Assembly: GCA_963663405.2 (NCBI GenBank)
Contig: CAXXSM010000086.1
Span: forward strand, 1-39,251
Source of the DNA: a bacterium
Lineage (GTDB): Bacteria > Hinthialibacterota > Hinthialibacteria > Hinthialibacterales > Hinthialibacteraceae
DNA: 39,251 bases
Direction of reading: 5' to 3'
In this document: positions 2,576 through 39,251 of the stretch, in pieces
Position numbering within the stretch: position 1 is the stretch's first letter
How the letters are laid out: every line of letters begins with the position of its first letter
Notes under the pieces: model-generated
What the model saw: the letters and a program-made list of their open reading frames with translations, nothing else
Told to the model about the DNA's origin: nothing
Database searches by the model: none
Position numbers and translations under genes: made by a program

Positions 2576-3196
2576 TCAGATGGGGCACGTAACTATGAAT
2601 ATGTTCCGCGGAACATATTCATAGATACAGCGTGCGGGACTTCCATTGAAATACGAAAAGGCTCGGACGTGCCCATCTAAAAACGACACTTGATCGCAAC
2701 GCTCGTAGAGCCAAGTGAAATCCCATCCGGCGTACATCAAGCGCATGACAAACTTCCAGACTTTCTTGCACGCCCCGTTGACCTCCACCGTCACTTCGAA
2801 AAAATCAACTTGGGCTTCATCCCCAGGACGATGAACGAGAGGGATAAACACTTCCGCCGCCGCGCGTTTCTTCTCGGCTAGATACGCTCGGACTGTGGTC
2901 AGCCCGACATCGTAGCCTTCTTCCCGCAATACTTGATGCACTTTCGCGCCGGTCACTCGTTGTTTGGGGGTGGTTTTAGTCTTCCACTCCTCTAACAACT
3001 CCTCGATCCGCGGCGCCACTTTCTCCAACACCGGTTTGGGACGAGAATTCTTTTCCACCCGAATCGGTTCCGAGTTCTCCAAATATTTCTTCACCGTATT
3101 CCGGCTGATCCCCAATTCTTCAGCGACACTCCGCTGACTCTTCTTCTCCTGCAATACTTTGTGACGTATCAGCACAACATGATCCATCCTCAGCAT
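2576..3196 (-). pseudogene. istA: IS21-family transposase IstA, N-terminal part, interrupted
   Basis: N-terminal HTH (SQRSVAEELGISRNTVKKYL), PGDEAQVDF; breaks at RCIY where the conserved YDN would follow. Confidence 0.85.
2593..2624. repeat. Perfect 32-bp palindrome at RIT/istA junction
   Basis: CTATGAATATGTTCCGCGGAACATATTCATAG equals its own reverse complement. Confidence 0.95.
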
Positions 3197-3247
3197 CCTT
3201 TCCTCCAGATGTCCATATCAGGACCCTGGAATTGTGTCTGAGGGTGG

Positions 3248-3304
3248 CTCAATTTCTAAGCGATGGTTTTCACTTTTTGGCTCACTTTCCGAGCGGTGCG
3301 TCCA
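3248..3304 (-). mobile_element. IS21 left end
   Basis: Minus strand begins TG (TGGACGCACCG) at 3304 with internal repeats AAAGTGAGCCA and AAATTGAGCCA; resolvase sequence resumes at 3305. Confidence 0.75.
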
Positions 3305-3703
3305 GTTGTCGTTGTCTGGAAACTCGATCGGCTTTCACGGTCACTCAAAGACCTCCTTGTTATTATGGAGCAAATCCACAAATCGGGAGCCGGATTTAAG
3401 TCTCTAACCGAATCGATTGACACCATAACACCAGCTGGTCGGATGATGATGCAAATGGTGGGTTCCTTTGCAAAATTTGAGCGGGAAATGATCCGTGAAC
3501 GGACAAAAGCAGGGCTTGAAGCCGCTCGCAAAGAAGGGCGCATTGGTGGACGAAAACCAAAACTTCGCCCGGATCAGCGGAAAGATGTTGCGGAAAATGT
3601 TCTAACTGGGAGGAAGTCCGGAGCGCAAATGGCGCGGCTTTATGATGTCAGCGAGGCCACAATTTCACGTATTGTGGCTCAATACAGGCAAAATAGGGAC
3701 TGA
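3305..3703 (+). pseudogene. Serine resolvase, C-terminal part, interrupted by IS21
   Basis: VVVWKLDRLSRS...FEREMIRERT...C-terminal HTH; closely similar to intact copy 19659-20228. Confidence 0.9.
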
Positions 3704-26365: not shown

Positions 26366-26722
26366 CTAGGGCCGACACTCGATTGGCAAGGGAACCATCA
26401 TCCTGGCCCCAGATAGATGCGCTAAACCCTGGTTGAGAATCCGTTTATCATACGTATGTTCTTCTTCCAACGCGCCTTTTTCATGCAGGCATTGAACGCC
26501 TTTCTGAGAGAGTGAATAAATGAATTCCGGCCGCCCTGGCTGCCCGCGTACAACTCGCTTTCTTTCGATCACGTAATCCAAGCAAAACAGTTTCGACATC
26601 CGCCTGCGGATGGTCCGAACATGGGCGCCTTCCAGGACGGCGATTTGCTTGACAGTCAAAAGCCGGTATTCCGCAATCAAGTACGCCAATTTCAGGTCTT
26701 TCGAATCGATTTTTTGATTCAT
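26366..26722 (-). pseudogene. Replic_Relax (replication-relaxation)-like protein, N-terminal wHTH only, probably truncated
   Basis: YRLLTVKQIA...RRRMSKL...GRPEFIYSLSQKG pattern; GGAGG RBS; no nuclease domain follows. Confidence 0.6.
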
Positions 26723-26890
26723 GATGTTTCCTCCATCTTTTTTATAAAAATAAGCGGGAAGAAATGACCAGAAATTTCAATTGAGCAAATCCACACGAAG
26801 GAATCCTCTATTGCTGAGGGTTGCATTGGAAATCTATGATAAGCGAGATAAGCAAAACCTGTTTGTAGCAAATTTGATTCATTTAAAAAA

Positions 26891-26906
26891 CCGAAACATT
26901 TAAATA
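26891..26906 (+). promoter_or_regulatory. Archaeal-type BRE-TATA motif
   Basis: CCGAAACA-TTTAAATA, upstream of GGTGA RBS (26942) and the 26943/26952 ORF. Confidence 0.65.
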
Positions 26907-26942
26907 CAGGTTCATCACCACTTTATAGAAACAACATCAGCG

Positions 26943-27536
26943 GTGATTGCATTGAATTTCGGACAATCAAACTACAATCAACATACGCCCTATATGGGCT
27001 TGGAATCGAGAACGGATTATTTGAATTCTTCTTCATCGGTTTATTCCCAATCTAAATCCTTGTCCCTGAAACAACCGGACACTTATTCTGGAGAGATTGA
27101 CTCGGCCACGGTTTCCTCCCCTACTCACTTGGATGCGCTGACTGATGGAATCCAATCCGAAAAATCGAGGGATCCGATCCATCGTTTTCTGGCGGATAAA
27201 AAAGCGTTTTTATCAAATAGCGTGGAAGATATTTTGGGGATGATTTATGAACGGGAATATTTACGGGATACGAATTGTTACCGGATCGATCGCGATTCCT
27301 GTTACATCTCACAGAAACTGTATGAAATCTATTACATTCCCCTTGGGCTGAATCCCAACATCGATAAACTGCGCTCCAATCTCGAACGGGAGATGATTGC
27401 GTTTGAACGGGAGAAGCGGATGGAATCGGTAGCGTGCTGGCGGGATATCACTCGCTTAAAAGGCGACCTGCGGGAAGTCATGCGGGAATTTTCCCAAGAG
27501 AATCGTAAAGGTTATCTGCTGTCAGGTGATCGATAA
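26943..27536 (+). CDS. Hypothetical helical protein, upstream partner of ATPase
   Basis: Long ORF ending 2 nt before ATPase start; real start may be TTG 26952 after GGTGA. Confidence 0.7.
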   Translation: MIALNFGQSNYNQHTPYMGLESRTDYLNSSSSVYSQSKSLSLKQPDTYSGEIDSATVSSPTHLDALTDGIQSEKSRDPIHRFLADKKAFLSNSVEDILGMIYEREYLRDTNCYRIDRDSCYISQKLYEIYYIPLGLNPNIDKLRSNLEREMIAFEREKRMESVACWRDITRLKGDLREVMREFSQENRKGYLLSGDR

Positions 27537-27538
27537 AA

Positions 27539-29521
27539 ATGGAGGTCTATGAATTATGCCGGAAGCTGAAACCGGTGTTAGGCGGCCGGGCGGATCGATT
27601 GTGGTTGGCCTATCTGGCCGAGGACAATCGCGGGAAACAGGAATTGGAGATCGCATTGCAGTTGTTAGCCGCTCAACATCTGGGCGTAAACGTTCAGGTC
27701 CCTGATGTTCATTTATCCGCTCCGCCACAGGATAAAGCTGATGGAACGTATAACCTTGGTTCGGTGGTCTATTGCGATCGGCCGCTTCACGCATTTGGGC
27801 TCCGAGAAGATGAACTGATCCAGCATACAGCGATCTTTGGCCGGTCGGGAGCGGGGAAAACCAATACGGTGTTTGTCCTTCTGGAGAGTTTTCTTAATCA
27901 AAAAAAGCCGTTCCTTTTGTTCGACTGGAAGCGGAATTATCGGGATCTTTTATCTGTGCGGGAGGATGAAATTTTAGTTTATACAGTGGGAGGGCAGACC
28001 GTTCCCTTCGCATTCAATCCATTGATACCTCCGGAAGGAACCAGCGCGGCGGTTTGGCTCAAAAAAATGATCGAGATCATCGCTCACTCCTATTACTTGG
28101 GAGAGGGCGTCATGTATCTTCTCCAGGAAGCGATCGATGCGGTGTATCACTCGTTCGGTGTGTACAAAGGAAATCCCCCCAAATACCCCACCTTTCAAGA
28201 TGTTCTGGAATGGCTGGAAAAACACCCAGTGAAAGGACGAAAAGCGCAATGGATGGATTCCGCTTTGCGGGGCGTTCGATCGATCTGTTTTGGGCATATG
28301 GGGAACGTGATGAACACCAGCGTGCAATCGAATGTGGCCAATCTCTTGGGCAAGAATGTGATCCTGGAGTTGGATAACCTGACCAACGCGGATAAAACAT
28401 TCACGATCGAGTCGCTCCTGCTGTGGATTCATCATTACCGATTGACGCAGCCGGACCGGGAGACCTTCAAACACGCCATGATCATCGAGGAAGCGCATCA
28501 CATTTTACTGAAACGTTCCGGCGCCGGGAGCGGCGGGGAAGCGATTACCGACACCATTCTCCGGGAAATCCGGGAATTGGGGGAAGGGATTGTGTTGGTA
28601 GATCAGCATCCGAGTTTGATCTCGATTCCCGCGATGGGCAACACCTACGCCACGATCTGCATGAATCTGAAACACCGGTCCGATGTCAACGCGGCGGGTG
28701 GGGCGATGCTGATTGACAATGAAGAGCGGGAATTATTGGGCCGGCTGCCAATCGGTCGGGCGGTCGTCAAACTCCAGGGCCGTTGGCTGCAACCGTTTGA
28801 GATCTCGATTCCTCACCGCAAAATCCCCAAAGGTTCAGTGAACGATACCGCTTTGGCGCAACACATGGTGGAATGGAATATCCTTAATCCCTATGCGGAT
28901 TATGAGGAAATCGTAAATGGTGATGAGGATGCTATCACTATCCAATTGAATGAGAAAGAAAAAACCTTTTTGATCGATGTGTTTCAGAATCCACTGTATG
29001 GCGCGGTGGAGCGGTACCGGCATCTTCATCTTAGCCGCAGGAAAGGAAACGCGATTCGGGAAGCGTGTATCGAAAAAGGATTGATTGAACCGGAGGAGAT
29101 TCGGACATACAGCGGAAAAACAGTTCTGCTGGGATTAACGCCAAATGGAAAAACAATCTTGCGTAATTTGGGATATGACGTTCCGGATAAATCCCGTTGG
29201 GGCAGTTTGGAACATGAGTTCTGGAAAGAAAAAGCCGCCCAACAATTCGTTCATTTGGATTGGACCGTAACGAAAGAAGAATCCGGCCATGGATATACCG
29301 ATCTTGTGGCGGAAAAGAACGGCCAAAAAATTGCGGTGGAGATTGAAACGGGAAAATCAAATTGGAGGGAAAATATCCGGAAGAATCTAGCGGGAGATTA
29401 TCGAGGGATTTTCATCCTAACTACCAAACCAGAAACGCAGAATCAGATTCTAAAAGTGATCGATGAAATGGAAACCAAGATCCCCATCAAAGTGAAACAA
29501 GTCCAAGATTTCGTGAAATAA
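27539..29521 (+). CDS. HerA/VirB4/FtsK-like ATPase (DUF87) with C-terminal wHTH and PD-(D/E)xK-like domain
   Basis: Walker A GRSGAGKT, Walker B IIEEAH, REIRELGEG..LVDQHPS; C-terminal EHEFW...TDLVAEK...IAVEIETG. Confidence 0.85.
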   Translation: MEVYELCRKLKPVLGGRADRLWLAYLAEDNRGKQELEIALQLLAAQHLGVNVQVPDVHLSAPPQDKADGTYNLGSVVYCDRPLHAFGLREDELIQHTAIFGRSGAGKTNTVFVLLESFLNQKKPFLLFDWKRNYRDLLSVREDEILVYTVGGQTVPFAFNPLIPPEGTSAAVWLKKMIEIIAHSYYLGEGVMYLLQEAIDAVYHSFGVYKGNPPKYPTFQDVLEWLEKHPVKGRKAQWMDSALRGVRSICFGHMGNVMNTSVQSNVANLLGKNVILELDNLTNADKTFTIESLLLWIHHYRLTQPDRETFKHAMIIEEAHHILLKRSGAGSGGEAITDTILREIRELGEGIVLVDQHPSLISIPAMGNTYATICMNLKHRSDVNAAGGAMLIDNEERELLGRLPIGRAVVKLQGRWLQPFEISIPHRKIPKGSVNDTALAQHMVEWNILNPYADYEEIVNGDEDAITIQLNEKEKTFLIDVFQNPLYGAVERYRHLHLSRRKGNAIREACIEKGLIEPEEIRTYSGKTVLLGLTPNGKTILRNLGYDVPDKSRWGSLEHEFWKEKAAQQFVHLDWTVTKEESGHGYTDLVAEKNGQKIAVEIETGKSNWRENIRKNLAGDYRGIFILTTKPETQNQILKVIDEMETKIPIKVKQVQDFVK

Positions 29522-29729
29522 GGAAAAATAAAATCTCTGGAGTGAAACACCGTGTCAAAGGAATCCGATTTCAGTGATTCCAGGAGTATTTACCTTTCAT
29601 ATTTCAATTGACCCTCTATAGAGCCTATTTCATTCCAGGATAAATAGAATCTTGGAATATCTTCATTCGGAAGAATCCGTTGGATAATTCCAAGATTCAT
29701 AATCATGCAATGCATGGGATAATTGATCT

Positions 29730-30614
29730 TCAATCAACAACCATGGGCTGTGATTTCTTCCCCTCTTTTGTGAGAGATTCAATCTGAGTAATGATGGTGG
29801 ATGCGCATCGGCGGATCTTCTCCAGACGATTGAGCAGTTTGTTTTTATCGCCTTCCCACAGGCGGATGTAATCGGACGACGCTTGGATAGCCTGTACGCT
29901 GAACCGTTCACAGACGACACAAGCGACGGCTTCGGCCTCCAATTCACGCAGTGGACGGGAATCGTTGGTTGTTTGTCTTTGATGAAGCAATTCATGGGCG
30001 AATTCATGCGCAAGCACAGCGAAGGTTTCCGCGGAATCCATTCCCTTTTTGATCGTGATGGATCCTTTTTTGGAATAGCCGTATGCCCGGCCTGCGTACC
30101 CATAATCGAGCTGGATTCCATTGTTACGAACAGCTTGCTCCAGCATGGAAAGACGTTGTCTCGCTTCACCTTGTGCTCGAAACGGTTCGGGTAACTTTGA
30201 GCCGTGTGTCTGCGCTAGATCGAAAACACAGACCACACGAAACGAATGTATTGTGTCTTCCTCAAATGGTACTTTCGAGTCTTCTTGCTTTGTTTCTTTT
30301 GACTGTATTGAAACTGTTTTCTTTTTGGTGCAAACCGGAGCGAGGACACGGACGGCTTTCTCGCCACGTTTAATAGATCGATGAAGGCGTTTCCAGGTTT
30401 GGAATCCGGCGACTTGCGTGGCTTCAGGGCGTTGGGCCAAAATGAGAAATTGATTGGAGGTGGAGTAGGTATGGAAAAGCGCCATGGTTTTCAGGTATCG
30501 AGTCATCTCGGTGGAGTATCCTTGTTCCAGATGTTCTCCCAATTTGGCGATGGTCTCCTGGATGATTTTCCGGCTTTGTTTAATTCGATCTTTGGTAGTT
30601 TGGTTTGGTTTCAT
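29730..30614 (-). CDS. ArdC-like ssDNA-binding/antirestriction protein with zincin motif
   Basis: FHTYSTSNQFLI..QRPEATQVAGFQTW....RSIKRGEKA, VFDLAQT, HEFAH, ELEAEAVA; GGAGG RBS before ATG 30614. Confidence 0.85.
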   Translation of the reverse strand: MKPNQTTKDRIKQSRKIIQETIAKLGEHLEQGYSTEMTRYLKTMALFHTYSTSNQFLILAQRPEATQVAGFQTWKRLHRSIKRGEKAVRVLAPVCTKKKTVSIQSKETKQEDSKVPFEEDTIHSFRVVCVFDLAQTHGSKLPEPFRAQGEARQRLSMLEQAVRNNGIQLDYGYAGRAYGYSKKGSITIKKGMDSAETFAVLAHEFAHELLHQRQTTNDSRPLRELEAEAVACVVCERFSVQAIQASSDYIRLWEGDKNKLLNRLEKIRRCASTIITQIESLTKEGKKSQPMVVD

Positions 30615-30792
30615 TTGTATCCTCCGGCCAACTGGCCACTCTTGGACCAGTTGGCTGGAGGATCTCATCGAGTGAATTTTTCAAGATCCAATTGTGAGAA
30701 GTGAGTACCAGGTTAACGAAAGGTCAATCAAGGAAAAACAGCTGGATTATGTCCACTAATAATTTTCAATATGGAAGATAATTCCTCAAAAA

Positions 30793-30810
30793 AAGGGGAT
30801 TTCTCCCCTT
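30793..30810 (-). terminator. Probable intrinsic terminator
   Basis: Minus strand AAGGGGA-GAAA-TCCCCTT followed by a T run, just after the 30830 stop. Confidence 0.6.
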
Positions 30811-30829
30811 CAGTTCATCACAATCAATC

Positions 30830-31180
30830 CTAACGCAAGAACAGATAATACCATCGCCGTTTTGGCTTCTGGCTTTCCGTTTCACGATGAATCCGTTGAC
30901 GTTCCAGTTCAGAAAGTTTCCGGCCGATCTCTTCGGTGGTTTCTTCCTGAGCTACAGCCCGATAGGCTGTTACGCTTTTGAAGATCACGGATTGATACTT
31001 TGCTTCGACGATATCGATCAGTTCGAGGATCGCTGCGCCAATTCGAGCGGCTTTGACATGCTCTTGGAGATCGTTGAAGTGACTATCGAAAATCGATTGT
31101 TCGGTCAGGATATCTCGCAGTCCTCGGCCTACATTTCGATTCGATTTTGCGTTAGCTGTTTTACTACCGTTATTATTCAT
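30830..31180 (-). CDS. Hypothetical coiled-coil protein
   Basis: AAAGGA RBS before MNNNGSK at 31180; basic/aromatic C-terminus KRRWYYLFLR. Confidence 0.65.
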   Translation of the reverse strand: MNNNGSKTANAKSNRNVGRGLRDILTEQSIFDSHFNDLQEHVKAARIGAAILELIDIVEAKYQSVIFKSVTAYRAVAQEETTEEIGRKLSELERQRIHRETESQKPKRRWYYLFLR

Positions 31181-31202
31181 GATTTTGTTCCTTTCTAGTT
31201 TT

Positions 31203-31673
31203 TTAGATTTCTTGCCAGACCGATCCGGAATTGATGCCGGGGGCAATGGCGTGCGCGGCGGCTGTCAGCGTTCGATAGACTGTCCCATTGAACAGGATGG
31301 ATCGACCATCGGAGCGTTTGTTGGATGGATCGTCCACGATGACGGCTTCGTAGGTTTGGCCCCGGTAGATGGTTTGAATCGTGGAACCAACCGGTGGGAT
31401 TTCCAATGGTTTGCGGGTGTGTTCGGGGATGTATTGCTCATCGCCGGTTTGGTTTGGAATCTTGGTTTGGATTTTCTCCTTTCTTTTTGGCTTTGAACTT
31501 TGATTCAGTGTTGGCGGTGATTTGACACTTGGTTGTGATTTGTTCGAATCACAATCGATGAGACGTCTTTCTTGTTCACGTATGCAATCGGTTTGGATGC
31601 CACAGCTCGCGCATTCCGGAGCGATGGGATCAAACAGGGCGAAACAGGATGGATTTTGGACACAGGTATCCAT
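31203..31673 (-). CDS. Cys-cluster plus DUF2924/RAMA-like DNA-binding protein
   Basis: AGGAG RBS; C-x9-C-x2-C-x5-C; PPVGSTI...YRGQTY...FNGTVYRTLTAAAHAI. Confidence 0.65.
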   Translation of the reverse strand: MDTCVQNPSCFALFDPIAPECASCGIQTDCIREQERRLIDCDSNKSQPSVKSPPTLNQSSKPKRKEKIQTKIPNQTGDEQYIPEHTRKPLEIPPVGSTIQTIYRGQTYEAVIVDDPSNKRSDGRSILFNGTVYRTLTAAAHAIAPGINSGSVWQEI

Positions 31674-31722
31674 TGATAAATCTCCTTTCGATATTGGTTA
31701 AATTTTTAAGAAGAATTGGTTA

Positions 31723-33147
31723 CTACCGGTTTTTGCGGAGTAGTTCTGAAAACTTTGTGTAGAACGCTTTGGGGAGTTTGGGCAGGTTTTGAACGACTAC
31801 GTTCTCTTTGAAAAAGTTTTTCACGTAGTCCGTTTGGATACCAACAGCCACACACTCGATTCCTGCCTGTTCACACTTACGCAGATTCTCTTCGAGGTGT
31901 TTGATGACGGTCAGCTGCATCGTTGGATTCCCACTGTATGGTTCCCCATCGGTAAGGATAAGGATGATCTTCCGAGTCTCCTTTCGAACGACGATCCGTT
32001 TCGCAGTGAAAATAATGGCGTCATCGATGGGCGTGTATTCCAGGGCGTTCATAGCAGGAACGCGAGGCTTCAGCGACCGGAATGGTTCGTCGAACGCCTT
32101 AAAGATGGAATAGACGCAGGGAAAGAAGCGGGTGTAGAGTGTGGAGAGTTGCTGCAAATCCATCCCCGTTTCTCGTGTCAATCTCGCGAAGGCCCGTTTA
32201 GAAGGTTCGGTGGTATAACCGATCACTTCCGAGGGGATACGCAGTTGGTTGAGCGTATCAGCGAACAGAATGACGACCTGACGGGCGCATTTCACCAAAC
32301 GTTTGATCTCAGTTTTTTTAAGGTTGGAGACTTTTTGAGACAGAATTTCCGTTTCGGTCTTCTCATCTGGGTAGTCCAGATAGATGACTGTGTCGAACCG
32401 GTCTTTGAAGGCTTTGTTCAAAATCTGGGTACCGGCATACAATCCGGATTCATCGCCATTGCCGATCGTATTGGCAGTGGCGATGATCCGAAAATCGGGC
32501 TGGGAAGCGATACTCTCACCGTCTTTTTCGAGAAGAGTGAGTTTACCGCATTCTTCGAGCACGCTTTGGAGCACGAATAGGATATTCGGTAGAGCCGCGT
32601 CGATCTCATCGAGCAGTAGCCAGTCACCGTTTTTCATCGCGGTGGGCAGGATGCCTTCACTGTAAACCATCTCTTTCCCACGAACAGTCCAGCGGCCTAA
32701 GAAATCAGAGACCGTAGTCTCGCCATTCAGGTTGCAGCGCCGCAAAGGAGTATTGGTCTGGGCGGCGAGCTGCATAACCAGCGAACTTTTTCCTGTGCCG
32801 GTAGGGCCGACGATCATGACGTTCTCCTGGTGGTTAATGGCGTGGATCAGGTAGGCGGCCTCGGGCGGGAATTGATAATGCGGATCAAGGTTAGGCGCTA
32901 GTGGACTGGTTCCATTTCTCTTTTTGAGCGCCGCGTCATGAATCCGGAACTCTGCTGTGGCTTGTATCGGTGTTCGTTTGACGGTTTTGCCGGATTGGAT
33001 CTGATTGAGCAATGCCGGAGCCACCAAAGGCGCGCCAGGGTATTGCTTCAGGTACTCTTGGGCTGTTGTGCGGTGGCATTCACCCAAGTGACCATACAAA
33101 GCGCCATGGATTGACTCTCCACAAAGTTGACAGGTGATAGTGTTCAT
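31723..33147 (-). CDS. MoxR/CobS-like AAA+ ATPase fused in frame to partial CobT-like VWA domain
   Basis: N-terminal C2H2-like finger, GPTGTGKS, LLLDEID, FRIIATAN, DRF; then EVIGYTT...ILTDGEP...VAVGI; ATG 33147 with AAGGA RBS. Confidence 0.8.
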   Translation of the reverse strand: MNTITCQLCGESIHGALYGHLGECHRTTAQEYLKQYPGAPLVAPALLNQIQSGKTVKRTPIQATAEFRIHDAALKKRNGTSPLAPNLDPHYQFPPEAAYLIHAINHQENVMIVGPTGTGKSSLVMQLAAQTNTPLRRCNLNGETTVSDFLGRWTVRGKEMVYSEGILPTAMKNGDWLLLDEIDAALPNILFVLQSVLEECGKLTLLEKDGESIASQPDFRIIATANTIGNGDESGLYAGTQILNKAFKDRFDTVIYLDYPDEKTETEILSQKVSNLKKTEIKRLVKCARQVVILFADTLNQLRIPSEVIGYTTEPSKRAFARLTRETGMDLQQLSTLYTRFFPCVYSIFKAFDEPFRSLKPRVPAMNALEYTPIDDAIIFTAKRIVVRKETRKIILILTDGEPYSGNPTMQLTVIKHLEENLRKCEQAGIECVAVGIQTDYVKNFFKENVVVQNLPKLPKAFYTKFSELLRKNR

Positions 33148-33253
33148 CTCTTTTTCCTTTCTCGTAATAAATAAAAAAACCCCGGCGGATACCGGGGCTG
33201 TTTCGTTTGTGGGCTCTATGCCCTTTTTCATTTGTTTGAACTGTGGAATCGGA

Positions 33254-33490
33254 TCATTGGATCTTGATTCCAGGATCGGTGAAATTTTTTTCACAGTTTT
33301 GGCAGTAGAGATATTCCATTACCGGATTGATTCCATCCTCGACAGACTCGATTTCCTCTTCCGCCCAAATCAAACCGCAATCATCCTGGTAGAGATTGCG
33401 ATAGATACTGGATGGAAGCACGACACAGAGCTGGATGCGTTTCACATCTTCATTTCCACAATGCGGGCATTGGATTTCTTTGATACACAT
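33254..33490 (-). CDS. Small Zn-ribbon protein
   Basis: CPHC...CQNC, AAGGA RBS. Confidence 0.65.
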   Translation of the reverse strand: MCIKEIQCPHCGNEDVKRIQLCVVLPSSIYRNLYQDDCGLIWAEEEIESVEDGINPVMEYLYCQNCEKNFTDPGIKIQ

Positions 33491-34170: not shown

Positions 34171-34434
34171 CTAGTAATCCTCTGGATAAATCAACGACAC
34201 CAGATTTTGTCCATCGGTTCCAGCTCCTTCATCCAGGATGCCCCACAACCGGCGCCCGTTGATCTGGACGGTCCACAGGTTGGGATTGGCTGGATCGGGA
34301 ACTTTCATCTTCTCAAAGAGAATCGTGAACGCGTGATGGATTTCTTCCGGCGTCAATGTTTCGTATACGGTCCGTGACACAACGGTTTGGGGTGGGACTT
34401 CTACGGTATTGCTTGTTCGATTAGTTTCTTTCAT
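34171..34434 (-). CDS. Small plasmid/phage-type hypothetical protein ending LIYPEDY
   Basis: GGAGG RBS; terminal LxxPEDY motif. Confidence 0.65.
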   Translation of the reverse strand: MKETNRTSNTVEVPPQTVVSRTVYETLTPEEIHHAFTILFEKMKVPDPANPNLWTVQINGRRLWGILDEGAGTDGQNLVSLIYPEDY

Positions 34435-34906
34435 TTTGGAACCTCCATTGTTATGGTTGAGGCAAAACGGCCTGGCAGGCCAGTATCTGTCCTGCCAGGT
34501 TGTTTTGCACTTTGGATTTGGACTTGGATAGAAAATGTGATCGGATTAATCGAGAAAAAAGATAGAAAGTGTTCACTAGGTGAATCTCGCCACTTTACGT
34601 TTTTAGACGGGAATATCCCGTATAGTTTTTATATCTTGACCACAGACCGTTCGTTCGCTGTTCAACGGATTGTTGGGACAAACCGGATACAAACAAAGGT
34701 TTCATGTGGCCGATGTTGGTCTTCCAACCTGAAAGTCATCTCATTTTCCTGGCGGAAAAGATTCTACTTTCGGATGGTGTTTTGTTGTTCTTGGGCAGAA
34801 GTGAATTCCCTCCAGTTAATAAATCTTCCGGTTTTGAGCGTTTGGACAACTCAGTTTGGACAACTCAATTTTGAGAGGATTGTTGTATCTCTTGAGTGAT
34901 TGCAAA

Positions 34907-35488: not shown

Positions 35489-35902
35489 TCAAAGGTAAAA
35501 TATCAGGTCCCGTTCTTTCTGTTCCTGGATGGAATCCTTCTTCTGTCGGAAATTTAGAACTTGATTGGCCACTTTCACTAGGGCCCGGGGAAACTTGTTG
35601 GAAAACACCCAGCCTTCCCGATAGCCGTATGTCTTGTTGAACCGGGAAACGTGATCGATCAATCCCATCCGCCGCATTTTGGCGCGAACCGTCTCCAAAC
35701 TTCGGCGGCTTAATCCCAGTTGATCCACGATCGGATCCAGGACCGGCAGGAACTGATCCTTAGCCCATTTCAGTTCCACAAAGATCGACAGAAAAATCTT
35801 TTGATGATTAGAGTTATCCGGAAAGAGAATTCTCGCTAACTCATCCGCGGATTCCAACCGGGATATCGTGTTATGGTTAATCTCGATTTTTGTGGAAGCC
35901 AT
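35489..35902 (-). CDS. Putative winged-helix protein
   Basis: LGLSRRSLETVRAKMRRMGLID HTH-like pattern; 1 nt from upstream stop. Confidence 0.7.
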   Translation of the reverse strand: MASTKIEINHNTISRLESADELARILFPDNSNHQKIFLSIFVELKWAKDQFLPVLDPIVDQLGLSRRSLETVRAKMRRMGLIDHVSRFNKTYGYREGWVFSNKFPRALVKVANQVLNFRQKKDSIQEQKERDLIFYL

Positions 35903-35903
35903 T

Positions 35904-36248
35904 TTATTTAGGGCGGTAGGATCGATTAGCTTGATTGACTCGTTTGCGTAATGTCACTCGTTGCTTCGCAATTTCAAGTGCCTGGGAACGAAGGCTTGGA
36001 CCAAAGGTGGATTCTATCCAATAGATCGTTTCATACGCGCTAACGTAAATATCGTTCAGTAACCGTTGGAACCTCCAGCGGATTCCCTGGCGCGTCATAC
36101 CAAACGCGCGCTCTATTTTCATCCCGTAATTCTTGCGCAGCACTATCGTTTTCGGATCGGTCTGTTTCAGCTCAATGGATAGATCGTTCTCCTGAAATAG
36201 AGCTTTCAACCGTTGAATGAACTCCAAATCCTTTTGTGTTAGTTTCAC
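35904..36248 (-). CDS. Hypothetical HTH-like protein
   Basis: FGMTRQGIRWRF; start uncertain (GTG 36248 favoured by TATA spacing; ATG 36296 or 36359 possible). Confidence 0.65.
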   Translation of the reverse strand: MKLTQKDLEFIQRLKALFQENDLSIELKQTDPKTIVLRKNYGMKIERAFGMTRQGIRWRFQRLLNDIYVSAYETIYWIESTFGPSLRSQALEIAKQRVTLRKRVNQANRSYRPK

Positions 36249-36270
36249 ATTCCATTTCAAGATAGATGTT

Positions 36271-37044
36271 CTATTTAAGGTTTTCGATCTCCTCATCACA
36301 ATCCCGTTTGAACACCCAGATATCATTCCCCTCTTGCCGCAAATGGACTTCCCGGTCATGTTCCATGAAAATCAAGGTGATAAACCGCCAGATTCGATCT
36401 TTTGGTTTGGATGGATGCAATACTGGGATCTCTGAAAACAGCACACCACGCTGGTTAATAAGAGCGGAGATGGCGCGTCGGTAATCGGTCATGCAGAACG
36501 TTTCCGAACGATCATACGCAAACTCATCATTTCCCGTTTCGGCGCCGATCAACCGGTCCAAATCTTGTTCCAATCCTGGGATGGTGTCCAATTGGGGATA
36601 GTCCTCCAACTCCAGTTCTTTCGAGCGGGAATCAGCAAGTTGTTTTCTCATCCTCTCCCGGAGTTGTTGTTTCCGTTCCCGTGATTCTTTCATCCGCTCT
36701 CTAAAATAATCCGCGTCGAACAGCCGTTCATCGAAGAGAAATTTGGACGGAACAGTAGCGCCGCATTGCGCGCAGGCGTAATGATACACTTTCTTCGTTA
36801 ACCTGGCTTTGCAGCAGGGGCTTGCTTGAAATTCAATCGTCGGATCAAGCTGAATACCGCAGGAACATCGCCATGTCGTGGGAGAGAGAACCTCCATCTT
36901 TCGGCCGCAGTGTGGGCACCGGTAGCGCATCCGCAGCACCGCCACGTAAAAATCCCGCGCTATGGATTGGATTGTTGTTACTCGATCGTGAACACGGTCG
37001 ATCGCCGCAATCAGAGGATTTGGATTCCTTCGTGGAATGAGCAT
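36271..37044 (-). CDS. Zn-ribbon protein with ScpA/kleisin-like C-terminal winged helix
   Basis: CPHC, CSC, CC, CAQC; C-terminal FITLIFMEHDREVHLRQEGNDIWV resembles the ScpA F.ALL.L...G.V.L.Q...DI motif. Confidence 0.65.
   Translation of the reverse strand: MLIPRRNPNPLIAAIDRVHDRVTTIQSIARDFYVAVLRMRYRCPHCGRKMEVLSPTTWRCSCGIQLDPTIEFQASPCCKARLTKKVYHYACAQCGATVPSKFLFDERLFDADYFRERMKESRERKQQLRERMRKQLADSRSKELELEDYPQLDTIPGLEQDLDRLIGAETGNDEFAYDRSETFCMTDYRRAISALINQRGVLFSEIPVLHPSKPKDRIWRFITLIFMEHDREVHLRQEGNDIWVFKRDCDEEIENLK
36272..36287 (-). promoter_or_regulatory. Archaeal-type BRE-TATA motif
   Basis: TCGAAAAC-CTTAAATA, in-frame GTG (MKLTQKD) 24 nt downstream. Confidence 0.5.
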
Positions 37045-37066
37045 GCCATTGGGGATATGCGCAAAG

Positions 37067-37106
37067 CATATAGATGTTTCGGTTCGAAAAACGAAAGGTT
37101 TATATA
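37067..37106. promoter_or_regulatory. Divergent pair of archaeal-type BRE-TATA motifs
   Basis: Minus CCGAAACA-TCTATATG (37082-37067; ATG 23 nt downstream) and plus ACGAAAGG-TTTATATA (37091-37106). Confidence 0.65.
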
Positions 37107-37141
37107 GATGTCGAGACTTACTGATTTACAGGTGATCAAGA

Positions 37142-37300
37142 ATGGAAGAACTGTATGAATGTCCTTATTGTTCATCGTCAAACACAATTTGGCGGGGCTA
37201 TCGCAAATTGAAAGAAGGGCGCGTTCGAATTCGCCAATGCAAATCCTGCAAACGGCGATTCACGCCCAAAAAACAACCGGAATACGGTGATGAACCATGA
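37142..37300 (+). CDS. Small Zn-ribbon protein (52 aa), not in ORF track
   Basis: MEELYECPYCSSSNTIWRGYRKLKEGRVRIRQCKSCKRRFTPKKQPEYGDEP; AGGTGAT RBS; ATGA overlap with next gene. Confidence 0.75.
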   Translation: MEELYECPYCSSSNTIWRGYRKLKEGRVRIRQCKSCKRRFTPKKQPEYGDEP

Positions 37301-37596
37301 ATGGAATAGCCGCAAAACCGGAGATGGAATTCAAAGCCGGGGCGGTTCGCGCCGCTATCTGGATGAATCCACATCAATCCGCCGATGGTAAATCGTTTAC
37401 CAGCGCGAAAGTCGTCGTGGAACGGATTTACAAGGATGAAAGCGGTCATTTTAAAAGCACACACCGGCTCGATACCAATGATATCCCCAAGGCGATCCTG
37501 CTTCTTAAAAAGGCGTTCGAATGGATGCTTATACTCAAGAAACCGGAGCCTGACCATCCGACGATCCAGTCCCATTTCAAACCGGCGATCCCCTAA
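37297..37596 (+). CDS. Small beta-rich protein, possibly PC4-like ssDNA-binding
   Basis: FKAGAVRAAIW.N...ERIYKD..G.FKST..L..NDIPK pattern; GGTGA RBS. Confidence 0.7.
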   Translation: MNGIAAKPEMEFKAGAVRAAIWMNPHQSADGKSFTSAKVVVERIYKDESGHFKSTHRLDTNDIPKAILLLKKAFEWMLILKKPEPDHPTIQSHFKPAIP

Positions 37597-37605
37597 CCGT
37601 CTACC

Positions 37606-37845
37606 ATGAATCCCTGCTTTGAAGAGCGGACTTTTTTGGCGAATGAGTCACCAATTTGGATTACGATTCAAAGAATCCGAGATCTGCGAAATATGGCTGA
37701 TGCCTGCCGTCATCGTATGCAAGAATTAAGCCGAGAGCCCCACAAGAATTCTTCGGAGATCCGGTTTGAAGAAACCGTTCTTCATTCGACCTTACGAACC
37801 ATTGAGAAAATGGAACATTCATTGTTTCTGGAAAGGAATGACTAA
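37606..37845 (+). CDS. Small hypothetical helical protein
   Basis: 79 aa, follows previous gene by 9 nt, converges on cdc6. Confidence 0.5.
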   Translation: MNPCFEERTFLANESPIWITIQRIRDLRNMADACRHRMQELSREPHKNSSEIRFEETVLHSTLRTIEKMEHSLFLERND

Positions 37846-39113
37846 AGATTTTGCCCACAGGTCTTGAAGACTTTTTGGACGACTTTTTCTGGAAGAGAGG
37901 AAGACAGCTCCCGGGTTTTTCCATACCGCCCCTTTGAGATCACCCGGGCGTTGATTAATCCATAAATATCCAAAAAACTGACGATATCAGAGAATCGCCG
38001 CTGCGTGAGTGTCCGCACGCCCCGTTGCTCACAAATCGATCGATAAATATCATAGGCGGGCCCGGTCCAGAGTTTTTCACGCGAGTTTTGCAACCCTGTA
38101 TAGCAGGCTAAGAGAGCGCATTTCTGTTGAGGCGCGAGAGCGTGGATTAACTGCTCGGTCTTGTCGATCTCCAACAAGGAATCCGCCTCATCCACTTCAC
38201 GCACACCCAGATAACCGCTCGAATCTTCAGCGATTTTGACTCCTTTGACCAGCAACTCGATGGCTTTGCGCGCGTCACCATTCTCCCGTGACGCGTACGC
38301 GGCGATTTTGCGAATCGCTGCGGGATCGACTTTTCGGGTATCGAGGGCTTTTTCCACCCGGAGATTCAAGATTTCGATTAGATCCATGGCGTCGTAGGGC
38401 TCAAAAATGATATCCGTTTTTTTGAGCACGGAGAGAATTCGAGGATCCAGGGTTTTATCCCATTCGATTCGATTGGTCAGCAAAAGGTAGAACAGTCGGA
38501 CGGGAATCCGTTTGGGCAAGGTCTTGGCTAAAAACGTGTAAAAGAGATCGCTGTTGGAGGTGACATTGTCGACCTCGTCCACCACAATGCATACCAAGTC
38601 ATTTCGAGTTGTCAGCGCCTGGATTACGGTTTCCTGCATCTGATCCAACGCAATGCCCTTGCGGTACCGTTTGGTTGTTCCATCCAAGGATAAGGCCAGC
38701 TCGTTCAACGCGCCGAAACAAGTTTTCGGAGTAGTGAGATCGACGTAATAATACTGAAACTGGATCTGTTTGACGCCGCACATGGACGCCAAAGCGTTGA
38801 GAAAATGCAGGCAGGTGACCGATTTCCCTGCGCCGGAAGGACCGTAGATCAGGAGATTGGCCGGCGAATCACCGGCGAGCACCGGTGACAAGTATTTGGC
38901 CAATCGATGTAGTTGTTGTTGGCGGATATTGCGTTGAAAGATCTCCTTCAATACCGCTACCCGTTCGGATTCCGTCAGTTTTTCGTCATCGAGATAGGAG
39001 GGATTCAGCGTGATTTTCTTGTCTTCGATATGGAGAAACGCTTCTTGAATCAAGGATTCTGTGCTCGTTGTCGAGGTGGATCGGCTGGTTCCACAGGAAA
39101 TCTTCTGACTCAT
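37842..39113 (-). CDS. cdc6: Orc1/Cdc6-family AAA+ replication initiator
   Basis: LIYGPSGAGKS, VVDEVD, FEPYDAMDLIEILNLR, GDARKAIELL sensor II, C-terminal wHTH LTQRRFSDIVSFLDIYGLINARVISKGRYGKTR. Confidence 0.9.
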   Translation of the reverse strand: MSQKISCGTSRSTSTTSTESLIQEAFLHIEDKKITLNPSYLDDEKLTESERVAVLKEIFQRNIRQQQLHRLAKYLSPVLAGDSPANLLIYGPSGAGKSVTCLHFLNALASMCGVKQIQFQYYYVDLTTPKTCFGALNELALSLDGTTKRYRKGIALDQMQETVIQALTTRNDLVCIVVDEVDNVTSNSDLFYTFLAKTLPKRIPVRLFYLLLTNRIEWDKTLDPRILSVLKKTDIIFEPYDAMDLIEILNLRVEKALDTRKVDPAAIRKIAAYASRENGDARKAIELLVKGVKIAEDSSGYLGVREVDEADSLLEIDKTEQLIHALAPQQKCALLACYTGLQNSREKLWTGPAYDIYRSICEQRGVRTLTQRRFSDIVSFLDIYGLINARVISKGRYGKTRELSSSLPEKVVQKVFKTCGQNL

Positions 39114-39205
39114 GCCGCATAGGAAGGAGCCTTTTACTATTTAAATCTTCTTTTGTCCTGAAGGAGTGATAACAGATAACCGTAAGGGAAGATTTCCTGT
39201 GGAAC
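39088..39205. repeat. Perfect 18-bp inverted repeat, ORB-like
   Basis: GTTCCACAGGAAATCTTC (39088-39105) and its reverse complement (39188-39205). Confidence 0.85.
39138..39153 (-). promoter_or_regulatory. Archaeal-type BRE-TATA motif of cdc6
   Basis: AAAGAAGA-TTTAAATA, ATG 25 nt downstream, no Shine-Dalgarno. Confidence 0.6.
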
Positions 39206-39251
39206 GTAATAATAAATTATATGTTATTTACTTCTTTTATTACTTACAATA

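Follow-up and report, generated by a model that had tools for sequence, protein, structure and literature searches.

Inverted boxes resembling archaeal origin recognition boxes at an orc1/cdc6-type gene on bacterial DNA: a candidate mobile-element replicator with a possible autoregulatory bracket

Introduction

How DNA replication is started marks one of the sharpest divides between organisms: bacteria use DnaA, DnaB or plasmid Rep proteins, whereas archaea and eukaryotes use Orc1/Cdc6 and MCM. The end of contig CAXXSM010000086.1, whose 39,251 nucleotides (nt) are referred to below as the window, raises the question of what an Orc1/Cdc6-type gene and a pair of inverted boxes of archaeal appearance are doing on DNA that appears to be bacterial. 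The initial annotation proposed that two perfect inverted 18-mers bracket the promoter of a cdc6 gene and form a candidate origin or an autoregulatory operator. The reading preferred here, to which a probability of roughly 0.55 is assigned, is that the boxes are Orc1/Cdc6 recognition boxes of a bacterial mobile-element replicator, and that the pair in the window also allows the initiator gene to regulate itself, by enclosing its promoter region and start codon.

The inverted repeat

A search for inverted repeats (seed 10, arms within 400 nt, at least 14 nt) listed nine in the window, of which a single one is perfect. Its arms, 39088-39105 (GTTCCACAGGAAATCTTC) and 39188-39205 (GAAGATTTCCTGTGGAAC), are 100% complementary over 18 nt and are separated by a spacer of 82 nt, so that they lie 100 nt apart from start to start, as had been described. 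With up to three mismatches allowed, the 18-mer occurs at these two sites only in 39,251 bases, and none of 100 dinucleotide shuffles contained two matches to it. Likewise, any perfect inverted 16- or 18-mer within 400 nt was absent from all 200 first-order Markov simulations of the window. A chance origin of the repeat is ruled out by these shuffles and simulations. Each arm contains an internal dyad of its own, TTCC-N3-GGAA. The boxes are 105 bp apart from centre to centre, and one of them is intragenic: the left arm lies within an open reading frame (ORF) of 423 amino acids (aa) with its ATG at 39113, in codons 3-9 (Q K I S C G T), in agreement with the earlier remark that one copy lies within the first cdc6 codons. 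The other box stands 75 nt upstream of this gene.

The box resembles the archaeal origin recognition box (ORB), as had been suggested. Its core, GTTCCACAGGAAA, is identical to the euryarchaeal ORB core, GTTCCAGTGGAAA, at 11 of 13 positions, the consensus being given in PMC1868953 as 5'-GTTCCAGTGGAAAC-AAA----GGGGG-3'. The Pyrococcus furiosus ORB oligonucleotides described in PMC1904270 have the form CCCCCC-N9-TTTCCACTGGAAC, and according to the same source TTCC and GAA are perfectly conserved in Pyrococcus ORBs; both motifs are present in the window box.

A position weight matrix (PWM) was built from six strong boxes (maximum score 36.6, threshold 8). A scan with it found no further strong box in the 39-kb window or in the 9-kb loci of relatives. 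The best other score in the window is 14.3 of 36.6, and about two matches of at least 8 are expected per shuffled window. Consequently, the boxes mark one place rather than a regulon.

The adjoining Orc1/Cdc6-type protein

The 423-aa protein matches the Pfam domains Cdc6_C (1.4e-21; score 76.7 against a cut-off of 25.1), Cdc6_lid (43.6 against 27) and AAA, as well as NCBIfam TIGR02928, the orc1/cdc6 family replication initiation protein (248.2 bits, the cut-off being 181.3). The translation contains the Walker A motif GPSGAGKS. Among solved chains, the nearest are Sulfolobus Orc1-1 (2qby_A, E 1.1e-46) and Aeropyrum ORC1 (2v1u_A, 9e-46), followed by weaker matches to Orc1-3 (3e-25) and to Pyrobaculum Cdc6 (1fnn, E 1.2e-10), the last of which is taken here to be of the Orc1-2 type. 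These matches mark the product as a genuine member of the Orc1/Cdc6 family, closest to Sulfolobus Orc1-1, and bear out the naming of the gene as cdc6. A reading of the Cdc6-like ATPase as part of a defence system was rejected: just one weak PADLOC match was obtained (E 5e-4), and no family fits.

The residues that touch DNA are of particular interest. In Sulfolobus (Sso) Orc1-1, R341 in the helix-turn-helix (HTH), R365 in the wing and G120/L121 in the initiator-specific motif (ISM) are reported as determinants of origin DNA binding (PMC3089459). If the numbering of the PDB chain and that of the paper are taken to differ by 11, the window protein has the Arg pair of TQRR, the Arg of GRYGKT and G153-I154 (KGI) opposite these positions. 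The winged-helix stretch TQRRFSD...KGRYGKTRE and the Gly-Ile of the ISM are invariant in a 28-member family alignment (A1).

The alignment to Sulfolobus Orc1-1 spans residues 64-412 of the window protein, with residue 64 opposite residue 24-25 of the chain. About 40 residues at the N-terminus thus form an extension outside the match to the archaeal chains. Within residues 1-63, L41, D42, D43, E44, L46, E50 and R51 are invariant, which gives the motif LDDE.L. The extension could be a family-specific interaction surface.

Conservation of the boxes in bacterial relatives

A genome scan gave at least five related loci, namely four bacterial ones and one distant haloarchaeal gene. The comparison uses L001 (a complete 8.16-Mb Desulfatiglandales chromosome), L002 (deltaproteobacterium NaphS2) and L003 (a Desulfarculaceae genome); the Cdc6 proteins of L001 and L002 are 56-59% identical to that of the window. 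L004, with a truncated gene and an unrelated upstream region, and L005, the distant archaeal gene, were left out of the box counts. The boxes are kept in L001 and L002, and the start-codon copy is kept in L003, so conservation upstream of homologues, which had been proposed as a check, is found.

In both L001 and L002, two strong inverted boxes (PWM 30-35.5 of 36.6) flank 144-146 nt of AT-rich DNA (69-74% AT), with cores of 78-83% AT and (TA)n runs. The distal box, GGGAAGATTTCCTGTGGAAAC, is in minus orientation and is the outermost of the upstream elements. The proximal box, GTTCCACAGGA(A/C)AT..., is in plus orientation on the gene side of the AT-rich DNA (L001 3872, L002 3864). Next toward the gene comes a conserved (T/C)TTAAATA at a distance of 25 nt from the ATG. 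Another dyad immediately precedes the ATG, and a weaker box, AAGGAAATGTCCGATGGAA, covers the first codons. The weaker copy AAGGAAATGTCC(G/A)ATGGAA is present at the homologous start-codon position in L001, L002 and L003. The longest identical intergenic runs between L001 and L002, of 24, 21 and 13 nt, coincide with the start-codon, distal and proximal boxes, respectively, and a shorter run of 9 nt lies at ATATTGTAA. On the upstream side of the distal box these two loci show no similarity, and within roughly the first 300 nt of coding sequence the longest run measures 14 nt.

In a four-way alignment, the upstream arm of the window falls on the proximal box, the downstream arm on the start-codon box, and the last bases of the contig, TATTGTAA, on a conserved block within the AT-rich region. 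The window pair therefore consists of the proximal box and the start-codon box and is not the pair that flanks the unwinding region. In L001 and L002 the AT-rich region extends about 100 nt beyond the part visible in the window, up to the second inverted box; by this analogy, the box that would close the presumed unwinding region of the window lies beyond the contig end. The archaeal origin layout recognised in the initial annotation is accordingly present in the relatives, where inverted boxes do flank an AT-rich region, but it does not apply to the window pair as such, and the replicon appears to be bacterial.

Two features of the surroundings can be added. In L001, a toxin-antitoxin-like DUF433/DUF5615 pair (2722-3332, minus strand) lies between the origin region and a gene for nucleoside 2-deoxyribosyltransferase, and in L002 the nucleoside 2-deoxyribosyltransferase gene directly adjoins the origin region.

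The AT-rich region and the elements before the start codon

The DNA beyond 39205 is AT-rich, as had been noted: positions 39206-39251 are 87% AT, compared with 55.4% for the whole window. It is not enclosed by the pair, and since the contig stops 46 nt into it, the AT-rich region is incomplete in the window. TATTGTAA, which is aligned in the window, L001 and L002, falls within a 9-nt run identical between the latter two.

An AT-rich stretch with a TATA box had also been reported between the arms. The element itself, TTTAAATA, is present and conserved: the aligned blocks read TTTAAATA in the window and L001, CTTAAATA in L002 and TTTATATA in L003, and the distance to the start codon is 24 nt in the window and 25 nt in both L001 and L002. 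The DNA between the arms, however, is only 59.8% AT, and an archaeal TATA reading of TTTAAATA is unsupported because the host appears to be bacterial. Around the repeat, 0 sigma-70 promoter or terminator sites were found, and the sigma-70 consensus scan gave none at TTTAAATA or between the arms.

Two weaker elements stand nearby. A degenerate dyad, TTCCTATGCGG, is aligned with TTCCTGTGGAT in L002 and TTCATGTGGAA in L001. GTTATC(A/T) words stand in tandem in the window, and GTTATCA-like words also occur within the origin regions at L001 3764 and L003 3829; these words may be a site for a second protein. Their reading as DnaA boxes was rejected on a scan with a DnaA-box consensus, which found no box with at most one mismatch in the origin regions of the window, L001 and L003, and one in L002 that overlaps a dyad. 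Rfam families and tRNAs were likewise absent from the window.

The start-codon box: constraint on DNA or on peptide

A box that lies within the first codons may be conserved for the sake of the DNA or of the peptide. L003 keeps the block AAGGAAATGTCCAATGGAA with one mismatch in 19 nt relative to L001 and L002, but out of the reading frame, and its ORF starts at an ATG that overlaps the end of the block. Retention of the box out of frame points to constraint on DNA rather than on peptide. The start-codon box would then be a clear example of how the first codons in a gene family are shaped by constraint at the DNA level.

The protein family provides indirect information on the same point. The 120 proteins listed include the window's own; 109 of them have a full N-terminal region, and in 58 of these 109 the N-terminus has the form M-x-[QKE..]-[KEQ]-x-S-x-[GAPR]. 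The stricter form [KEQ]xSxG was seen in 48 of the 109, compared with 2.7% expected by chance, and the following 10-30 residues are variable in length and sequence in the 28-member alignment. The motif fits a retained TCC-NNN-GGA dyad in the first codons. L003 is without the accessory genes described below and is flanked by an IS21 element. Its two origin-type boxes are degenerate, and this pattern would fit a division of labour in which the start-codon box serves autoregulation and the other two boxes the origin, although this is a single case.

Bacterial host and mobile-element context

The window encodes an ECF (extracytoplasmic function) sigma-70 factor (region 4, 2.5e-11; region 2, 1.1e-05), Laminin_G_3 and FG-GAP proteins and a weak match to the prepilin N-methylation motif (E 1.6e-4). 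Further genes encode resolvases, DDE transposases, a Replic_Relax protein, a HerA/TraG-type ATPase, ArdC and a MoxR-VWA ATPase. A search with the Cdc6 protein returned 432 proteins at E of at most 0.001. Among the best 119 of these, the window's own protein aside, identity is 55-71%, and all those with an organism name are bacterial (Candidatus Hydrogenedentes and Thermodesulfobacteriota). Some relatives lie on contigs of 4.8 and 8.2 Mb.

A tblastn search of PLSDB (72,556 plasmids) matched 436 records, none at 60% identity or more; the 90 matches listed were all archaeal, and the archaeal plasmid Orc1 proteins among them are at most about 32% identical. The gene matched three records in a phage collection, all of them haloarchaeal viruses, and the L001 origin region had no blastn match among plasmids. 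Judged from the genes of the window and from the named relatives, the gene sits on a bacterial mobile element, and the replicon is bacterial, not archaeal.

Several further features of the contig belong to this context. Three tandem, partly overlapping tyrosine-recombinase genes occupy 2-2507 on the plus strand (Phage_integrase E 1.8e-19 to 6.6e-30), the first being cut by the contig end; they resemble the "recombinase in trio" arrangement of bacterial elements. Just after the third of them, at the 3' end of an HTH gene (2576-3196, minus strand), lies a palindrome of 20+20 nt without a spacer (2589-2628, 95% complementary), which could be a terminator or a recombination site. A transfer-type gene set at 26366-33294 contains a Replic_Relax fragment, a HerA/TraG-like ATPase with weak similarity to CedD and VirB4, ArdC with a metallopeptidase domain, and a MoxR-type AAA+ ATPase fused to a CobT-like VWA domain. 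This set suggests that the contig is part of a conjugative or mobilisable element. Between 34435 and 35488, about 1 kb is without a convincing ORF and carries a tandem 14-nt direct repeat, two copies of GTTTGGACAACTCA, at 34840-34867. A hairpin with 22-nt arms (34462-34508) lies just upstream of an 87-aa gene (34171-34434, minus strand).

Neighbouring genes conserved with the initiator

Four small genes accompany cdc6. They form a module that is 44-62% identical and in the same order in L001 and L002 (blastp of stop-to-stop frames; alignments A3 and A4), at 35489-37300 in the window, 5462-7590 in L001 and 5430-7566 in L002, with the zinc-ribbon gene on the strand opposite to cdc6. In L001, a Replic_Relax gene is also present downstream. 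Searches of Pfam, NCBIfam, PHROGs and PADLOC gave no convincing family for any of the four proteins; the matches obtained were weak zinc-ribbon ones and one weak Csa3, all below curated cut-offs where such exist. The four proteins are candidates for the missing partners of the initiator. Two small ORFs (99 and 79 aa) lie at 37297-37845 on the plus strand between cdc6 and the zinc-ribbon gene, with no family match and no counterpart in L001 or L002; the 99-aa protein, by eye only, resembles small single-stranded DNA-binding proteins of the PC4/YdbC type. The features of the locus are collected in Table 1.

Table 1. Coordinates of the initiator gene, the boxes and the associated elements in the window.
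Feature	Position	Strand	Remarks
Gene for 137-aa protein	35489-35902	-	Part of the module beside cdc6; invariant stretch RKMRRMGLIDHVSRFNK..GYREGWVFS
Gene for 151-aa protein	35904-36359	-	Kept in synteny with cdc6
Gene for 257-aa protein, two Cys clusters	36271-37044	-	Kept in synteny with cdc6
Gene for 52-aa zinc ribbon	37142-37300	+	Kept in synteny with cdc6
orc1/cdc6-type initiator gene, 423 aa	37842-39113	-	Pfam, NCBIfam and solved-structure matches
Start-codon box GTTCCACAGGAAATCTTC	39088-39105	+	Codons 3-9; PWM 33.4 of maximum 36.6
Dyad TTCCACAGGAA of the start-codon box	39089-39099	+	Read on the plus strand
Degenerate dyad TTCCTATGCGG	39115-39125	-	Just 5' of the ATG; weak, below the PWM threshold
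Conserved TTTAAATA block, possible promoter element	39138-39145	-	24 nt 5' of the ATG
Tandem GTTATCT GTTATCA	39167-39180	-	Between the proximal box and TTTAAATA
Gene-proximal origin box GTTCCACAGGAAATCTTCCC	39186-39205	-	PWM 34.1; adjoins the AT-rich region; aligned with the proximal boxes of L001 and L002
Start of the presumed unwinding region (87% AT)	39206-39251		Truncated by the contig end
Conserved block TATTGTAA	39244-39251	-	Inside the AT-rich region; aligned in the window, L001 and L002

Proposed explanation

In the proposed explanation, the two arms are copies of a recognition box of about 20 bp, GTTCCACAGGAAATCTTCCC, that would be bound by the adjoining Orc1/Cdc6-type protein. The upstream copy, at 39186-39205, would mark where an AT-rich unwinding region, incomplete on this contig, borders on the gene side. 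The two bacterial relatives lead one to expect a second strong inverted copy about 160 bp further out, so that boxes would flank the unwinding region as they do in archaea. At the same time, the upstream copy and the copy at 39088-39105 would enclose the promoter region together with the beginning of the initiator gene. An initiator sitting on both boxes would keep its own expression low, in the manner of DnaA at the dnaA promoter. For this autoregulatory role, which had also been proposed, the position of the pair fits, given that the boxes bracket the TTTAAATA block and the start codon.

Several observations weigh against this explanation. The run of G on the GGAAA side is absent, as had been pointed out: the window box continues TCTTCCC and has a shorter tail, and the six strong boxes continue after GGA(A/C)A as TCTTCCC, TCTACTC or TTTACCC, whereas the G-string of archaeal ORBs is recognised by the AAA+ domain of Orc1/Cdc6 (PMC3936714). 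The distal box is outside what the window shows, the contig ending 46 nt into the AT-rich DNA. The DNA comparison draws on three informative loci of five, and in one of them, L003, the origin-type boxes are degenerate (PWM 14.6 for the distal-like box and below 8 for the other). A single A missing from a homopolymer in the assembly would account for the L003 frame, so the out-of-frame box there may reflect an assembly error. The description of the pair as bracketing the promoter depends on the conserved TTTAAATA block, because the sigma-70 scan gave no promoter between the arms. Finally, binding, unwinding and replication by this Orc1/Cdc6-like family are predictions from sequence comparison.

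The helicase is a further difficulty. Neither the window nor the 4-kb flanks of the relatives yielded a helicase or primase domain. Bacteria are not known to have MCM, so helicase loading would proceed without a known partner. In a host without MCM, the initiator would have to recruit a bacterial-type or unknown helicase, perhaps via the family-specific N-terminal extension or the four conserved small neighbour proteins.

A wider claim is that a widespread family of bacterial mobile elements, present in Desulfobacterota, Hydrogenedentes and the host of this contig, starts replication by an Orc1/Cdc6 protein that reads ORB-like boxes flanking an unwinding region, with such a helicase recruited. 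This claim is advanced tentatively, at somewhat below even odds.

Alternative explanations

The first alternative is that the boxes are an operator and nothing else. The Orc1/Cdc6-like protein would then be a regulator comparable to the non-initiator Orc1-2 of Sulfolobales, the boxes would be autoregulatory, and the AT-rich DNA would be ordinary promoter-rich intergenic sequence from which no initiation takes place. The perfect pair of the window does bracket the TTTAAATA block and the start codon, and the start-codon box is the best conserved of the three, being kept in L003 without the accessory genes while the other boxes have decayed. Regulators of the Orc1 family are described (PMC6061795, PMC9738581), and a helicase partner was not found in the window or the flanks. 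However, the protein is closest to the initiator type Orc1-1, and its match to 1fnn is far weaker. Strong inverted boxes around a core of about 80% AT with (TA)n runs constitute an origin layout that a simple repressor would not need, and no other box in 39 kb indicates a regulon. An operator without an origin is therefore regarded as unlikely.

A second alternative retains the boxes as protein-binding sites and assigns them to another protein: the 137-aa, 151-aa, 257-aa or 52-aa zinc-ribbon neighbour, or a host factor. All four genes, to which no function is assigned, accompany cdc6 in the window, L001 and L002, and strong boxes are seen only in loci that contain them, the origin boxes of L003 being degenerate. 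Against this, the near-ORB core and the conserved Orc1-1 contact residues would have to be a coincidence, and the start-codon box persists in L003 without the neighbours. Binding by another protein is consequently judged improbable.

According to a third alternative, the arms act as RNA or as a cruciform, pairing in a long 5' leader or extruding from the DNA and thereby hiding the start codon and controlling translation. In the window the arms form an 18-bp stem with a fold of -43.9 kcal/mol (z -4.2), which none of 200 shuffles equalled, although such a strong fold follows from the repeat itself. A TATAAT hexamer at 39216-39221, in the AT-rich DNA upstream of the proximal box, would allow transcription of the upstream arm. 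In the alignment of the four loci, however, the stem is no better preserved than column composition predicts: 76.4% of cells are paired compared with 74.2% in shuffles, 105 of 500 shuffles reaching as high a value, and perfect pairing is confined to the window. RNA pairing also explains neither the internal TTCC-N3-GGAA dyads nor the further inverted copy about 160 bp upstream in L001 and L002. This alternative is very improbable.

An ordinary archaeal origin, on a contig from an archaeon or an archaeal plasmid, is hardly tenable: the combination of Orc1/Cdc6 and ORB-like boxes is typical of archaea, the distance of 24 nt from the end of TTTAAATA to the ATG fits an archaeal leaderless promoter, and two window proteins weakly match the archaeal families CedD and Lrs14 (far below cut-offs), but the window carries the ECF sigma-70 factor and the weak prepilin motif match, the named relatives among those listed are bacterial, the syntenic module lies in the 8.16-Mb Desulfatiglandales chromosome and NaphS2, and the archaeal plasmid Orc1 proteins among the matches listed are far more distant.

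Significance

With a bacterial replicator read by Orc1/Cdc6 again taken as the preferred reading, the interest of the locus is that an Orc1-1-type gene in bacterial genomes has retained both the DNA-contact residues and an ORB-like box arranged as at archaeal origins. If the wider claim above is true, it would amount to a working transplant of an archaeal initiation step into bacterial replication. A site that fires would offer a handle on how an Orc1-type initiator works with a bacterial replisome and on the movement of replicator-initiator pairs between domains. A full-text literature search, with most subscription journals outside its reach, found no description of Orc1/Cdc6-ORB replicons in bacteria. 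NaphS2, the host of a related element, is a cultured strain, which would make assays of binding, autoregulation and replication practical.

Comparison with known systems

The closest comparison is with archaeal oriC, as in Sulfolobus oriC1, Pyrococcus oriC and haloarchaeal oriC1. In general, archaeal origins have ORBs that flank an AT-rich region, with the initiator gene adjacent (PMC4010727), and the minimal H. hispanica oriC1 is reported to need both inverted ORBs (PMC3936714). The present locus shares the adjoining initiator gene, the repeated box with a TTCC...GGAA(A) dyad core, the Orc1-1-type protein with its winged-helix and ISM contact residues and, in L001 and L002, the inverted boxes around an AT-rich region. 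It differs in its bacterial host, seen in the markers of the window and in the relatives, and in the absence of the G-string. There are two strong boxes only and no mini-ORB cluster, one box lies in the first codons of the initiator, the protein carries the N-terminal extension, and no MCM domain or other helicase is found in the window or the flanks.

Iteron-type theta plasmid origins are also mobile-element origins beside an initiator gene, with an AT-rich region and sites that may be autoregulatory, and a distant relation between plasmid Rep WH1 domains and the Orc1/Cdc6 winged helix has been proposed (bioRxiv 10.1101/2024.09.03.610885). The initiator here, in contrast, is a full AAA+ Orc1/Cdc6 protein and not a Rep, and two to three inverted boxes take the place of tandem direct iterons. 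An iteron-type plasmid origin was rejected on these grounds, together with the absence of a DnaA box from the origin region of the window.

The autoregulatory side of the proposal is best compared with the dnaA promoter and with the control of haloarchaeal oriC2. Extra ORBs beside cdc6E negatively control oriC2, and the bacterial parallel cited for this is the set of DnaA boxes in the dnaA promoter (PMC3936714). The protein and the box family are different here, the two boxes are 105 bp apart with one of them intragenic, and repression is suggested by their position. What the systems have in common is that boxes for the initiator stand at the promoter or 5' end of the initiator's own gene, an arrangement that would couple the level of the initiator to the occupancy of its boxes.

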